From: an uncultured Candidatus Saccharibacteria bacterium | GTDB lineage: Bacteria > Patescibacteriota > Doudnabacteria > UBA920 | DNA: 25,587 bases | Reading direction: 5' to 3' | Assembly (NCBI GenBank): GCA_964407465.1 | Contig: CAYOVR010000002.1 | Span: forward strand, 1 to 25,587 | Shown here: positions 7,016-11,566 of the stretch, one piece after another | How the letters are laid out: each line of letters starts with the position of its first letter | How positions within the stretch are numbered: position 1 is the first letter of the stretch | Translations under genes and position numbers: made by a program | Notes under the pieces: generated by a model | What the model saw: the letters and a program-made list of their open reading frames with translations, nothing else | Database searches by the model: none | What the model was told of the DNA's origin: nothing

Positions 7016-7270
7016 TCAGCCCTTCTCACCCATCTTGCGAACAAACTCAAGATGATCATCACCCTTGAGTATGTATGAGTCGTCAACCTGCTGGTCATCG
7101 ACAAATGCGTTGGTGCCTTCTGGGATATCCCATGCTGCACCATAGTTTGAACGGATGTCACCAATCGTCTGGCCTACAAATTCAGACTTCTCCTTACGGA
7201 TTAGTCCCCAGACAACGGTAGCTTCACCGTCACCAGATGCGTTTGGATTGGCTGCAGATGCTTGTGCCAT
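7016..7270 (-). CDS. ubiquitin-like beta-grasp protein (Prok_Ub/PRTRC protein C-like) ending in GEKG
   Basis: Beta-grasp pattern ATVVWG / TIGDIRSNYGAAWDIP / AFVDDQQVDDSYILKGDDHLEFVRK with terminal G-x-K-G then stop; adjacent to E1; strong RBS. Confidence 0.85.
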   Translation of the reverse strand: MAQASAANPNASGDGEATVVWGLIRKEKSEFVGQTIGDIRSNYGAAWDIPEGTNAFVDDQQVDDSYILKGDDHLEFVRKMGEKG

Positions 7271-7279
7271 TGAAATTAA

Positions 7280-7286
7280 CCCTCCT
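7280..7286 (-). promoter_or_regulatory. strong Shine-Dalgarno site of the Ubl gene
   Basis: AGGAGGG on the minus strand, 9 nt before ATG 7270. Confidence 0.75.
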
Positions 7287-7294
7287 AGGTAAGG

Positions 7295-8065: not shown

Positions 8066-8589
8066 GATATACCTACTGGTGTAGAGTTAGGGTTGGTAAA
8101 GCTCCATGACAGAAATTTATGACAAACATCAATTTCACCAAGGTCTACATCATTATCGACCTTGTTCAGAAGCCACATTCTTACTCCTGGACATGCTGTT
8201 TGATATTGTTTAGCGCAATCACTACATTTATATCCATCACCAAACTCATTAGTATATTCTAATTCATTCCATAAGAGTCTGGTTGAATCAACAGTGATTG
8301 GACCTTCAGGACATGTGCAAGCCTTTTCATTGGCTTCACATCTAAAACAAATTGAATCCCAATAAGCATCCCAAATGGCATCAGGATCTTCTGTATTATA
8401 GGGAGTTATTTCCCCATAAGTATCTCCATAGGTCCATGTTTGTACATCAAAATGTTCATATACTTCGAAACACTCTTCACAATATGAATCTGTTCGAAAA
8501 ACTATATGAGAACAATTTTTATTGGGACAAGCAGCATACCAACGTTTACCTTGTGGACTATTTCTTGGATTCTGAAGAGACACCGCCAC
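8062..8589 (-). CDS. Cys-rich multi-zinc-finger protein (12 Cys)
   Basis: CPNKNC-x10-CEEC; CFRC-x6-CTC; CSDC-x7-C...CH. Coupled to E1 by an ATGA overlap. Confidence 0.7.
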   Translation of the reverse strand: MAVSLQNPRNSPQGKRWYAACPNKNCSHIVFRTDSYCEECFEVYEHFDVQTWTYGDTYGEITPYNTEDPDAIWDAYWDSICFRCEANEKACTCPEGPITVDSTRLLWNELEYTNEFGDGYKCSDCAKQYQTACPGVRMWLLNKVDNDVDLGEIDVCHKFLSWSFTNPNSTPVGIS

Positions 8590-9835
8590 GTGGAGACTCC
8601 TTTACGCCATCCCAGAAAATATGAAACTTTGAATCTGCAGATTTTGCTGAGGGATTATAGATAACAATCTTAGTACTATCTCTCTTAGCTGGATCTAGAT
8701 CAACAGTGTACTGACTAAGTGTTAGTCTAATCTTATGGATGTCTTCAATAGTTTCTCCTGGCATCAGTAAGAAGCTATTGCATCCAATGCATCTACGTCG
8801 AGTGATTTCCGTAGGCATCAAACTAGAGTGACAGCATGGGCACTTCTTAGGATTCTTCGTTAACTGAGTAACATAGATACATGCTCGGAAATCAGGAGCA
8901 CCTTCAGGAAGAACAACCTTAGGACGGGTAATAATGTTACGACCAGCAGGCAAACGAGAAACGTTGCTACCGTGTGTACCGGTGCCACCCTGTCCGTAGT
9001 GCTCCCAATGATTGTATTGTTTAGTATCTACTTCCTTAACTGAGACATTTTCAAGCCAGCCTTCAATCTCTGGCGTAAGTGCAGCAGCGGGCATAGCTTC
9101 GAATACATCAGTTGGGTTCAAGTAGAATGTTTGTCCCATAACTTGCAACTCAACATGATATTCAGTTGCATAGTTATTCTTTGCTTGCCAGCCATAAGTA
9201 ATATGCAAACCATCAAAGTCTGCCTGATCCTTATGATCAGTAGAAGAAGCAAAGGCACTCATCTTTGGATGAGAGTGTACAGAACCTACTACGTAAGCAC
9301 TCTTGGGTTTTTGTGCAACAATACTTTCAGGCTTATAATCGCAGTGTCCTGCTGTATTCTCCTGTTTTGGAGTAAGGATCCCCCAGCCTTCACTACCGCC
9401 AATCTTGGGATCCCAAGTCAGGATAATAATTGCTTCAGTACCGTGTCGATCTTCCGCAGCACGAAAAAAGGTATCAAGTTTAGCCACCATTTCCTGAGGA
9501 ATTTTTGGAAGGTTAAACTGAGCAGATACTTTAGTCTTATCCTTGCCTAAAACATCTGAAGGAGCAGGGACAAGAGCCCTACCCATGATGTCCTTACGGA
9601 ATCTAAAGATCTGAGGATGGATACGAGTCTTTGCTACATTATTATCTTTGAAATCAAATGTAGTTAGGCTAAGAACGAAACCCATGTCTACATCGTTCAG
9701 CTCGAGTTGATCCCAATCTGCATCAGATGTGACCACATAACATGGTTGCCCATTAGTAAGTTTAAATTGATTTAATTCCTCCAAAGGAATACGAACAACA
9801 GCTTCTTCTACGGGGACAGGGGTTGCCTCAGCCAC
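8558..9835 (-). CDS. JAB/MPN+ metallopeptidase (Prok-JAB, deubiquitinase-like) with C-terminal Zn ribbon
   Basis: Catalytic Glu in HGTEAIIIL, JAMM motif VGSVHSHPKMSAFASSTD (HxH-x7-S-x2-D), then FDGLHITYG; C-terminal CPCC-x13-CIGC. GTG start with AGAAAGGA upstream. Confidence 0.9.
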   Translation of the reverse strand: MAEATPVPVEEAVVRIPLEELNQFKLTNGQPCYVVTSDADWDQLELNDVDMGFVLSLTTFDFKDNNVAKTRIHPQIFRFRKDIMGRALVPAPSDVLGKDKTKVSAQFNLPKIPQEMVAKLDTFFRAAEDRHGTEAIIILTWDPKIGGSEGWGILTPKQENTAGHCDYKPESIVAQKPKSAYVVGSVHSHPKMSAFASSTDHKDQADFDGLHITYGWQAKNNYATEYHVELQVMGQTFYLNPTDVFEAMPAAALTPEIEGWLENVSVKEVDTKQYNHWEHYGQGGTGTHGSNVSRLPAGRNIITRPKVVLPEGAPDFRACIYVTQLTKNPKKCPCCHSSLMPTEITRRRCIGCNSFLLMPGETIEDIHKIRLTLSQYTVDLDPAKRDSTKIVIYNPSAKSADSKFHIFWDGVKESPRGGVSSESKK

Positions 9836-9889
9836 GGTGGCTTGAGTCCTTTCTCGTCATAATAATCAACATTATTGAATTTGATAAGA

Positions 9890-11566
9890 TCAAAAATTGT
9901 CGTCGTCTTCAGGTTCAGCTTGAGCTGTGTGAAATACTATATTTTTTGTTTTAAAACTAAAATATGTATCAGTTGATTTTGTGCTTTGATTTTCAATTCC
10001 TAAAGACATAAAAACTTGTTGATTTAATGGCTTATCTTTATCAAATATTTTATGAGCAACTAACTTTTGTTTAGCTGTATGAAAACATATGTTACAAACT
10101 TTATGCTTATTTAATCTATTCATAGTGAAATTCTTACACACAACACATGTAAGAATTCCCTTAGGTAGATTTGTTTTGTCATACCAACTTTTATCTACCG
10201 GAGAATAGATAGCATGTTCAGTTCTAATCCATTTGTTATTAAATGAACATAGAACAGCGTAGTTTTTAACTTCAGATGCTAAAGCATATCCATCTTCAAC
10301 TGGAACAGCAATATTATTCCCAATTACTTCTCCAGTAAATATACATTTCTGATCAGCGTAGGGTTTAACAAGAAGCTTTGGCTTCACTACGCTTTGTGGA
10401 GGAGTGATATGGATACTAAAGCTAGAGCTACTAAAACTTTTTCTTGTTGGCACATGTGATAAATCATTCATTAAAGAGCCAACATTTAGGAGTGAAGCGT
10501 CTTTACCTCGAGGATCATCTTCAGCAAAGATATCTAATCCATTAGGTAAATAAGTTAGGTCAACATCTTTAAAGTATTCAGGATGTGCTGTTTGAAAGTA
10601 TCTTGAAACAGGATCTGCTTGGGAGTAAGAGTTATGGCCAATACCATAAACTGCTGCACCCAAAGTATATGGAATACCTATCATTCCATTTATATAATCT
10701 TGTCTAGAGAATGAGGATTGACCTTTGTAATTCTCTTTCATGTAAGAATATATAGATTGAACTAAAAGTTCTTCATTAAGTTTCATAGATGAAAGATCAT
10801 AGTTATTAATTAAATCTGTGTTTGCTATGAGTCTATCGGTATTAATATTAAATACAGATATAGGAAGAAGATGTTCTTCTTTTAGAACAAAGTCTGGATC
10901 TTCTTTAGTATATTGCTGCCAGGCATTTGGACTAATAAATCCTGGATGAGCATTGTATCGCCAATACAGAGCTGCTCCATCGATCCAGCTCATGTTAGCG
11001 TTGTAGCCTTCGCCGCCACGGACACGAGCAATAGCTTTTTTAAGGCTAAGATTAAACTCGGGAGGATCATTCTCTTGATATAGACAAACCCAACCTAATC
11101 CTGAATGCCCATAGAACATAGCATTAGTGTTAGGAAGGTTCGTATGATAAAGCTGTTGATTCAAATTAATGATAGATTCAGGTGAATAAAAATGTCTAGC
11201 ACCTATGAGGTGTGATGACTTCTTATCTACTTGTATCAATCCTACAATGATAAGATATGGTTGTGATACTTCAAACCATTTAGAAGTATCAAAATTCAGA
11301 AAAGGAACTAACTGAGCTTTACTTCCGTTCACGAATATTTTTGTAGTAGATGGTTCAACTTGATATACAAACTGATAAAAATTTCTGTATCTTCTGAGTT
11401 GAAGTAGTCCTGTTCCGCTAACTGGGAGTAGTCCTGTATCAGAATAAGCTGAATTAACTTCTAAATCTAAGTTGTTAACAACTGATTTATTTTGTAGGTT
11501 ATTACCAAAATTAGTAGCTTTAATTAATTCTTCATTTTTATCAAGCTCAAAAGATATATTAGTCAT
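9890..11566 (-). CDS. Prok-E2 family D-like protein with long C-terminal extension and Zn ribbon (E2 paralogue 1)
   Basis: TGLLP..FVYQVEP..FEVSQPYLIIVG..QQLYHTNLPNTN..GLGWVCLY (E2-type PN...GxVCL active-site motif); C-terminal CVVC-x13-CNIC. Confidence 0.7.
   Translation of the reverse strand: MTNISFELDKNEELIKATNFGNNLQNKSVVNNLDLEVNSAYSDTGLLPVSGTGLLQLRRYRNFYQFVYQVEPSTTKIFVNGSKAQLVPFLNFDTSKWFEVSQPYLIIVGLIQVDKKSSHLIGARHFYSPESIINLNQQLYHTNLPNTNAMFYGHSGLGWVCLYQENDPPEFNLSLKKAIARVRGGEGYNANMSWIDGAALYWRYNAHPGFISPNAWQQYTKEDPDFVLKEEHLLPISVFNINTDRLIANTDLINNYDLSSMKLNEELLVQSIYSYMKENYKGQSSFSRQDYINGMIGIPYTLGAAVYGIGHNSYSQADPVSRYFQTAHPEYFKDVDLTYLPNGLDIFAEDDPRGKDASLLNVGSLMNDLSHVPTRKSFSSSSFSIHITPPQSVVKPKLLVKPYADQKCIFTGEVIGNNIAVPVEDGYALASEVKNYAVLCSFNNKWIRTEHAIYSPVDKSWYDKTNLPKGILTCVVCKNFTMNRLNKHKVCNICFHTAKQKLVAHKIFDKDKPLNQQVFMSLGIENQSTKSTDTYFSFKTKNIVFHTAQAEPEDDDNF

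Follow-up and report, generated by a model that had tools for sequence, protein, structure and literature searches.

The 25,587-bp contig CAYOVR010000002.1 (36% GC), which was analysed over its whole length and is referred to here as the window, carries all of its substantial open reading frames (ORFs) on the minus strand. Five of them form a compact cassette coding for an E2-like protein, a JAB/JAMM metallopeptidase, a protein with 12 cysteines, a ThiF-type E1-like adenylating enzyme and a small ubiquitin-like protein (Ubl) (Table 1). A first-pass annotation made from the sequence alone had described these genes as co-oriented, closely packed and apparently a complete phage-borne ubiquitin-like conjugation cassette, and all five minus-strand ORFs were recovered at 7016-11566. 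Following the direction of transcription, the first two genes are separated by 54 nt, the next two junctions are overlaps of 32 nt and 4 nt, and the last spacing is 24 nt. Purifying selection acts on the genes, the catalytic motifs that they encode are intact, and within a clade of large phages the set is maintained as a unit.

The synteny of all five genes, in unchanged order, in seven other contigs (L004-L008, L010, L011), together with low ratios of non-synonymous to synonymous substitution rates (dN/dS), identified the ORFs as real genes rather than chance reading frames. The ratios, calculated against the closest relative, a 120-kb Logan contig (L010), were 0.05-0.22 for four of the genes, while the synonymous changes in the 175-residue cysteine-rich gene were saturated in this comparison and gave no ratio. 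Identity to the same relative was 81-90% for the JAB, E1 and Ubl proteins and 52-54% for the E2-like and 12-Cys proteins, the latter two diverging much faster than the former three between two close phages. Scanning for promoters and terminators gave results no better than those for shuffled sequence.

Table 1. Genes of the cassette, the sites discussed in the text and neighbouring features of the window
Feature	Position	Strand	Remark
558-residue E2-like protein	9890-11566	-	First transcribed of the five cassette genes
E2-like domain, residues 1-239	10850-11566	-	Part of the 558-residue protein
Codon of Cys161, E2-like protein	11084-11086	-	
425-residue JAB/JAMM metallopeptidase	8558-9835	-	Second cassette gene
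175-residue 12-Cys protein	8062-8589	-	Third cassette gene
256-residue ThiF-type E1-like adenylating enzyme	7295-8065	-	Fourth cassette gene
Codon of Cys190, E1-like protein	7496-7498	-	
84-residue ubiquitin-like beta-grasp protein (Prok_Ub kind)	7016-7270	-	Fifth cassette gene
Codon of Gly84, Ubl	7019-7021	-	
137-residue conserved protein	11568-11981	-	Directly upstream of the E2-like gene
538-residue classical AAA+ ATPase	3325-4941	-	Pfam AAA and AAA_lid_3
276-residue possible distant E2-domain paralogue	355-1185	-	Weak profile match
N-terminus (first 118 residues) of a possible E2-domain paralogue of ~325 residues	2-355	-	Weak profile match

Catalytic components and the modifier

The 256-residue protein matched the Pfam family ThiF PF00899 at 42.8 bits (cut-off 28.1, E 4.5e-11), and its best NCBIfam match was PRTRC_ThiF TIGR03736, with 25.1 bits against a cut-off of 144.75. 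The GxGGxG loop and the Ser-Cys pair pointed out in the first-pass annotation correspond to G8-A-G-G-I-G13 and Ser189-Cys190; the loop glycines (G8, G10, G11, G13), Asp39, Asn45/Arg48/Gln49, Lys57, Asp122-Asn123, Arg127 and Ser189-Cys190 are all invariant in 38 E1 sequences. Homologues of the enzyme numbered 439 at E<=1e-10, on contigs of up to 190 kb, and the nearest solved structures were the ThiF-type entries 9egb/9egc, TcdA, UBA5 and MccB; no paper on PDB entry 9EGB was found in the literature searched. The protein carries no rhodanese domain, UFD or fused E2.

The Ubl, which had been noted as a beta-grasp protein ending in Gly, closes with GEKG directly before the stop codon, as do its five homologues. 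Comparison by hhalign with one Prok_Ub repeat of Bacillus phage vB_BauM_KLEB27-3 aligned the two from end to end, including the terminal Gly (83.7%, E 8e-6), and a protein-atlas search led to beta-grasp clusters of the ThiS type, of which many are viral (score 0.94, structural TM 0.75). The AlphaFold model of the protein reached a modest pLDDT of 65, and the top 50 Foldseek matches in PDB were nearly all ubiquitin, MoaD or TGS folds, at non-significant E values (>=0.14). The 84-residue protein is accepted as a Prok_Ub-type beta-grasp modifier made in its mature form, and it would therefore need no processing, as its chain ends at the Gly preceding the stop codon.

The E2-like domain lies at the N-terminus of the 558-residue protein. 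The E2-type PN..GxVCL motif of the first-pass annotation was found in the form LYHTNLPNTN...GLGWVCLY, and Cys161, Asn146, Asn148, Trp159 and Tyr163 are invariant in 89 aligned family members, which share the motif LYHxNLPNxN...GxGWxCLY. A HMMER search with residues 1-239 retrieved 179 representative clusters, in all of which the domain is N-terminal, in proteins of ~300-760 residues. The C-terminal ~320 residues are rich in zinc ribbons, with conserved CxxC pairs (Cys408, 474, 477, 491, 494), and their length varies greatly among relatives. Word-based protein searching returned a single relative of the 558-residue protein and none of the Ubl, and neither megablast of the window nor tblastn of the 558-residue protein gave a match among 50,697 phage records.

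Profile comparison connected the domain to the Prok-E2_D lineage. The family PF14460 matched none of the 89 members of the E2-domain family, and no Pfam family matched the 558-residue protein or its 88 relatives; an hhalign comparison of the domain profile gave 77% (E 2e-5) with gp196 of phage KLEB27-3, 93% (E 2.9e-7) with a single bacterial protein that passes the PF14460 cut-off, and 97.6% (E 3e-12, 130 columns) with a Prok-E2_D mini-alignment composed of two bacterial PF14460 matches and two Bacillus phage proteins, the TPLLP, LYHxN and Cys motifs being in register. In the AlphaFold2 model of the domain (pLDDT 85.7, pTM 0.82), a six-strand beta-meander (residues 53-128) is followed by a long loop bearing the motif and Cys161 and then by helices from residue 171, a predicted order of elements that fits that of the UBC fold. 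Foldseek of this model against BFVD returned uncharacterised phage proteins only, including one of 241 residues that is probably the homologue in Bacillus phage vB_BceM_WH1, and a hidden Markov model (HMM) search of PDB sequences with the E2-family profile returned no match. From these alignments we conclude that the N-terminal domain belongs to the Prok-E2_D lineage, as a very divergent member with a putative UBC fold. Of the four Pfam families that the first-pass annotation had named for the cassette, Prok-JAB PF14464 and ThiF PF00899 were matched above cut-off, and Prok-E2_D PF14460 and Prok_Ub PF14454 gave no direct match.

The 425-residue peptidase matched Prok-JAB PF14464 at 26.5 bits (cut-off 25, E 6.2e-6). 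Its JAMM motif, described earlier as intact, comprises Glu134, His187-x-His189, Ser197 and Asp200, which are invariant across eight phage homologues. The catalytic domain is preceded by a JAB-N-like region and followed by a C-terminal CxCC...CxxC zinc ribbon. Its best NCBIfam match was PRTRC_A over residues 104-235 (23.3 bits against a cut-off of 101.8), and BLASTP aligned it with the JAB protein of phage KLEB27-3 at 2e-10.

The count of 12 cysteines given for the 175-residue protein was exact. Nine of the 12 are invariant across the aligned homologues, and the protein looks like several zinc ribbons. The 197-kb virus contig L008 (7995-12392) has no separate 12-Cys gene and encodes a JAB protein of 549 residues, the C-terminal extension of which aligns to the C-terminal module and conserved Cys pattern of the 12-Cys protein. 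This alignment suggests a fusion of the JAB and 12-Cys genes in L008, and the apparent fusion in turn points to a functional link between the two proteins. Nothing marking a RING or E3 protein was found in the 12-Cys protein; the atlas search gave zinc-ribbon leads below 0.9 only, and PHROGs, PADLOC and NCBIfam scans gave no useful match. A part as an E3-like adaptor is speculation.

Phage origin, probable expression and neighbouring genes

The contig is viral, as the first-pass annotation had supposed from its phage-type genes. Searching with the JAB protein recovered four virus contigs of 56-197 kb from IMG/VR, in which pattern scans with the E2-like and E1 queries found no match; the E1 query led to the 120-kb Logan contig, whose E1 is 83% identical, and a 6.5-kb ENA contig came from another search. 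Synteny extends over 15-20 kb of the related contigs and includes RNase H, a 220-253-residue protein, WhiB, small ORFs, a 132-137-residue protein, the cassette in the order E2, JAB, Cys protein, E1 and Ubl, and an AAA+ ATPase. A terminase large subunit (PHROG 2, E 4.9e-20) is encoded by one of the IMG/VR relatives, a 190-kb contig with a rated completeness of 90%. Neither virion or packaging hallmark genes nor an integrase or bacterial housekeeping genes are present within the 25.6-kb window.

The contig was binned into a bacterial metagenome-assembled genome (MAG), and PRTRC cassettes are typical of plasmids and of integrative and conjugative elements, from which it might be argued that the window belongs to a bacterial chromosome, plasmid or integrative element with an ordinary PRTRC maintenance cassette or a defence system of the Bil or Bub type. 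A further point in favour of such an origin is a 447-residue ORF with a weak ParB-N match (26 bits against 278.6) on another contig of the bin with a similar GC content of 36.9% (C24, 4481-4693; L015:445-1788). No homologue of this ORF is encoded on the related 190-kb phage contig. The bin itself (G000, 243 contigs) is chimeric, with contig GC ranging from 23 to 71%, and all but three of the proteins of the window lack even distant relatives on its other contigs; the syntenic relatives are virus contigs, one of them with a terminase, and the 25.6 kb hold no integrase or housekeeping gene. PADLOC returned weak generic 'E1-E2' (best 1.1e-4) and 'JAB' (0.011) matches confined to the nucleotide-binding or JAMM core, with no match to a Bil, Bub or type II CBASS (Cap2-Cap3) model and none of any kind for the E2-like protein and the Ubl. 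An origin outside phages is accordingly highly improbable.

The MAG assignment was rejected as evidence of a bacterial origin or of a host, because a bin with contigs of 23-71% GC gives no host. The WhiB gene hints at a host among the Actinomycetota. Genomes of the family and phylum of the bin in the collection measure 0.7-1.3 Mb.

At least 13 studies of wastewater, freshwater, sludge and runoff contributed metagenomes in which DNA of the phage was found. Four metatranscriptome libraries from three studies contained fragments with at least 99% identity, seven of the eight lying at 6769-7532, over the Ubl gene and the 3' end of the E1 gene, with coverage also at 11930-12082; nearly all of it falls on the Ubl gene, the 3' end of the E1 gene and the start of the next gene. 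The cassette is probably expressed.

The stop codon of the 137-residue gene lies 1 nt from the start of the E2-like gene. The gene occupies the same position in all seven related loci and has a dN/dS of 0.07, and its product may be an accessory subunit, although its membership of the cassette is uncertain. No similarity was found between the 137-residue protein and either the proteins that stand in its place in the Bacillus phages or the neighbour of a bacterial Prok-E2_D gene. The C-termini of both the E2-like protein (...EPEDDDNF, 9890-9920) and the 137-residue protein (...LDLDKDL, 11568-11600) are acidic tails with a hydrophobic final residue, and like tails occur in the Bacillus phage proteins gp198 of KLEB27-3 (...QEDDFI) and gp212 of WH1 (...RESDFI). 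These acidic-hydrophobic C-terminal tails may be a shared docking motif.

The AAA+ ATPase (Pfam AAA E 2.6e-25, AAA_lid_3, PHROG 8638) recurs on the downstream side of the cassette in L005, L006 and L010, and in L008 it follows the Ubl gene directly, starting 48 nt past its stop codon. The ATPase, which travels with the cassette, may be linked to it functionally. At the far end of the window, the 276-residue and ~325-residue proteins are paralogous to each other (E 1e-7) and were aligned by hhalign with the E2-domain profile at 65-72% (E 3e-5 to 6e-5), their own LPN...C motif being in register; by these weak matches the two genes look like distant paralogues of the E2-like domain. The window also encodes a T4-type polynucleotide kinase (PHROG 505, E 6e-88), a helicase (PHROG 16, E 7e-90), RNase H, WhiB, a SpoU methylase and, at one end, two tRNA genes, and most of its ORFs are orphans.

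Cultured-phage relatives and known systems

The cassette is not confined to this contig. A tblastn search with the E1 and JAB proteins matched seven cultured phages and one faecal phage contig, the cultured phages being Bacillus phages vB_BceM_WH1, Edson and vB_BauM_KLEB27-3 (217-234 kb), Salmonella phage Arash (181 kb) and Vibrio phages D69, D181 and D148 (187 kb). The genes of KLEB27-3, a phage of B. australimaris, are ordered as gp199 with Prok_Ub repeats, a 139-residue protein, a 559-residue protein, the E2_D-like gp196, the JAB protein gp195 and the ThiF protein gp194; gp195 is annotated as 'PRTRC_A domain-containing', and gp196 matches Prok-E2_D weakly (2.7e-4). The protein gp199 (L003:736-1443), annotated as a 'hypothetical protein', consists of four head-to-tail Prok_Ub repeats (PF14454, E 5e-27) of ~57 residues, each ending in ...AGVKG followed by Met. 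Phage WH1 carries an E2_D-like protein, a JAB protein and a ThiF protein as well, along with gp211 (L002:775-1674), which contains five Prok_Ub repeats of ~57 residues and is annotated as a 'virion structural protein'. The tandem repeats of the two phages match Prok_Ub at E values of ~1e-27.

In phage Arash, E2_D-like, JAB and ThiF genes stand in a row (gp246c-gp248c), and in Vibrio phage D69 the genes 0303-0304 encode E2_D-like and JAB proteins, while the candidate E1 of D69 matched neither Pfam nor the E1 profile. No Ubl was identified beside the E2_D genes of Arash and D69, where the adjoining small ORFs are not Ubl-like. Two of the Arash genes are labelled 'structural protein' from liquid chromatography-tandem mass spectrometry of purified particles, for which 116 proteins were listed (PMC10585845). 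As the same list includes ribonucleotide reductases and RNA polymerase subunits (PMC10585845), the label was taken to mean that the proteins are made rather than that they are parts of the virion, and 'structural protein' was rejected as the function of the Arash homologues.

The cassettes of these Bacillus, Salmonella and Vibrio jumbo phages resemble that of the window in having homologous JAB (2e-10), E1 (~1e-7 to 8e-10), E2 (profile 2e-5) and Ubl (profile 8e-6) components, an E2-JAB-E1 order, large genomes and adjoining polynucleotide kinase and RNA ligase genes. The Bacillus phages differ in that their Ubl is a polyubiquitin-like precursor of four or five repeats upstream of the E2 gene, which would need processing by JAB, and that they have a short E2 (241-255 residues), a different protein of 509-559 residues and no 12-Cys protein. 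The cultured-phage cassettes are described in no paper of the literature searched, and none was found on KLEB27-3 or WH1. The statement of the first-pass annotation that no characterised phage equivalent was known agrees with the literature searched, in which no paper characterising one was found; homologous E2_D-JAB-ThiF sets do exist in the deposited genomes of cultured phages. Among bacteria, a genome of the phylum of the bin, from a small-genome bacterium (G380), contains a bona fide Prok-E2_D gene (L012:468-1556, 47 bits), adjoined by a gene for a 138-residue protein ending in ...KFEKMG that looks like a Ubl with an N-terminal extension.

Among known gene sets, the operons of type 6d, which are the PRTRC cassette of TIGRFAMs (TIGR03734-03742) and are typical of plasmids and integrative and conjugative elements, come closest in make-up. 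Iyer et al. described the type in 2006 as comprising a small Ubl that ends in Gly, an alpha-helical protein, an E2 lacking the classical His, a JAB protein with a JAB-N region and a stand-alone E1 (PMC1779556). The window shares with it the Ubl with C-terminal Gly, a probable E2 of the D-family type, the stand-alone JAB with an N-terminal extension and the short E1 without rhodanese, and the best NCBIfam matches of its JAB and E1 proteins are PRTRC_A and PRTRC_ThiF; like PRTRC/6d it is biochemically uncharacterised. It differs in falling far below all PRTRC family cut-offs, in the fusion of the E2 to a zinc-ribbon tail of ~320 residues, in the extra 12-Cys protein, 137-residue protein and AAA+ ATPase and possibly the two E2-like paralogues, and in its residence in a large, apparently lytic phage instead of a plasmid or integrative and conjugative element. 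The relation to PRTRC put forward in the first-pass annotation is borne out by the weak PRTRC_A and PRTRC_ThiF matches and by the profile links to Prok_Ub and Prok-E2_D. Its remark that no ParB or PRTRC E/F genes are visible also agrees with the searches: no ParB-family protein is present in the window, NCBIfam models of PRTRC D, E and F matched none of the seven cassette and flanking proteins scanned, and PRTRC_B and PRTRC_C had no match at E<=1 in the whole bin, window included.

PRTRC cassettes have been met in prophages before. A canonical one in a Burkholderia prophage was read as a partition cassette (PMC13366799), and the PRTRC cassette of a Phocaeicola prophage has its protein B as a hotspot of mutation, connected with a diversity-generating retroelement (bioRxiv 10.64898/2026.10.01.756045). 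Such a hotspot would fit a target-reading E2, if protein B is the E2-like component. A review of 224 jumbo phages by the Aravind group makes no mention of such a system (PMC7824862). The literature searched, the coverage of which is incomplete, yielded no paper with a biochemical characterisation of the 6d class or a description of a Ubl/E1/E2/JAB set carried by a phage.

The Bil system (BilABCD) likewise has separate genes for a Ubl, E1, E2 and JAB-family deubiquitinase and uses thioester chemistry, as the present cassette would. Bil is reported to conjugate its Ubl to a protein, a phage tail fibre, in phage-host conflict, and gives the precedent for such an action by a gene set of this kind (PMC11601596). 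Different from the cassette of the window, Bil is host-encoded and has a large multidomain E1, a canonical UBC E2 and an ISG15-like Ubl. Bub (6E/DUF6527) offers the precedent of a diverged bacterial E1/E2/Ubl/peptidase pathway that was doubted earlier and then shown to conjugate proteins (PMC11601596). Bub proceeds through Tyr/Ser oxyesters, with an E1 and E2 that lack a catalytic Cys, and a Ser-His protease, whereas both cysteines are invariant here and the peptidase is of the JAMM type.

Sulfur-carrier pairs such as ThiF/ThiS, MoeB/MoaD and CysO/Mec+ also share the E1 adenylation fold and motifs, the Gly-ending beta-grasp partner and, in some operons, a JAB protein. The E1 might on this model thiocarboxylate the Ubl as in ThiS, MoaD or CysO, with the sulfur passing to a cofactor, tRNA or DNA and the JAB protein being a Mec+-type peptidase; the ThiS-type clusters nearest to the Ubl in the atlas search, the ThiF, MoeB and TcdA entries among the NCBIfam and PDB neighbours of the E1, the known sulfur operons with JAB, ThiS and E1 (PMC1779556) and the RNA-modifying and RNA-repair genes of the window (SpoU methylase, polynucleotide kinase) would all suit it. 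Yet the cassette contains no rhodanese, cysteine desulfurase or sulfurtransferase gene and so no sulfurtransferase partner, an intact JAB protein is kept although the Ubl needs no processing, the Ubl profile matches Prok_Ub and not ThiS or MoaD, an E2_D-like protein whose Cys is invariant accompanies the other genes in every case, and the polyubiquitin-like tandem repeats of the Bacillus phage relatives would make no sense for a sulfur carrier. Sulfur transfer is on these grounds very improbable.

Proposed conjugation cycle and its biological meaning

It is fairly likely that the cassette is a phage-encoded Ubl conjugation module, a stripped and strongly diverged relative of the PRTRC/6d operons without ParB. 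By the chemistry of the families, the ThiF-type E1 would bind ATP and adenylate Gly84 of the Ubl, which would move as a thioester to Cys190 of the E1 and then to Cys161 in the E2-like domain of the 558-residue protein. The fast-evolving zinc-ribbon tail of that protein would pick the targets, possibly aided by the 12-Cys protein and the two E2-like paralogues, and the JAB metallopeptidase, again judging by its family, would reverse or edit the conjugates.

Several results weigh against this cycle. The E2-like domain is matched by no Pfam, NCBIfam, PHROG or PADLOC model, and Foldseek of its confident model against PDB found no E2 or UBC structure (best E 0.14, unrelated folds), for which reason the E2 call rests on remote homology. 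No curated HMM (Pfam PF14454, NCBIfam, PHROG, PADLOC) recognises the Ubl, the E1 has no recognisable E2-recruiting domain, and no target, thioester or conjugate is reported for this class in the literature searched. The RNA evidence is weak, as the runs were picked for holding the gene and carry-over of DNA is possible. A complex model of the E1 dimer with the Ubl and the E2 domain scored 0.00, which is no evidence either way.

The unrecovered UBC fold, the lack of an HMM match for the E2-like protein, the short E1 without an E2-docking domain and the silence of the complex modelling would also be compatible with tagging that needs no E2, in which the E1 alone activates and conjugates the Ubl like archaeal UbaA/SAMP, and the 558-residue protein and its paralogues are substrates, adaptors or something else. 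Such a route is decidedly unlikely, given that 89 diverse family members all retain Cys161 and the motif around it, that the match with the Prok-E2_D profile aligns Cys161, and that the E2-like gene is in every case found in direct linkage with the JAB, E1 and Ubl genes. Tagging by the E1 alone, sulfur transfer and an origin outside phages are each less likely than a conjugation cycle run by the phage.

As to what the conjugation module would modify, the tagging of host or host-defence proteins during takeover is favoured, because the cassette stands among early-type genes and travels with the AAA+ ATPase; the chance of this role is put slightly below even. Modification of the phage's own proteins or virion is somewhat unlikely, and an action against competing phages is quite unlikely. 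In its broadest form, the proposal would be that large phages of hosts from several bacterial phyla run their own Ubl pathway, consisting of a Ubl or a polyubiquitin-like precursor, an E1, at least one E2 with a rapidly evolving tail for target recognition and a JAB protein as eraser, and coupled in the present clade to a dedicated AAA+ ATPase. Host or defence proteins would be marked by it for unfolding or inactivation in the course of takeover, as a viral counterpart of Bil-type host ubiquitination and possibly a measure against it, and some of its components may travel in the virion; put together in this way, it is an unlikely and tentative picture.

Type II CBASS, Bil and Bub are the three bacterial ubiquitination-like families that have been shown to conjugate proteins, and all of them are host-encoded (PMC11601596, PMC11601603). 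CBASS and Bil are antiphage systems, and the genomic context of Bub suggests the same. PRTRC/6d constitutes a fourth large class, with no described biochemistry in the literature searched, and is usually dismissed as a 'partition cassette'. The trimmed version reported here has no partition gene at all, yet a widespread clade of large environmental phages conserves it under selection and probably expresses it, and cultured phages of Bacillus, Salmonella and Vibrio contain homologous cassettes that have gone without annotation. Through these cultured phages, both the chemistry of the PRTRC type and viral Ubl tagging become testable in ordinary phage-host pairs, and with them the question of whether, like viruses of eukaryotes, those of bacteria employ ubiquitin-like tagging. 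With their tandem Prok_Ub genes, the Bacillus phages would provide a rare parallel to polyubiquitin in prokaryotic viruses.

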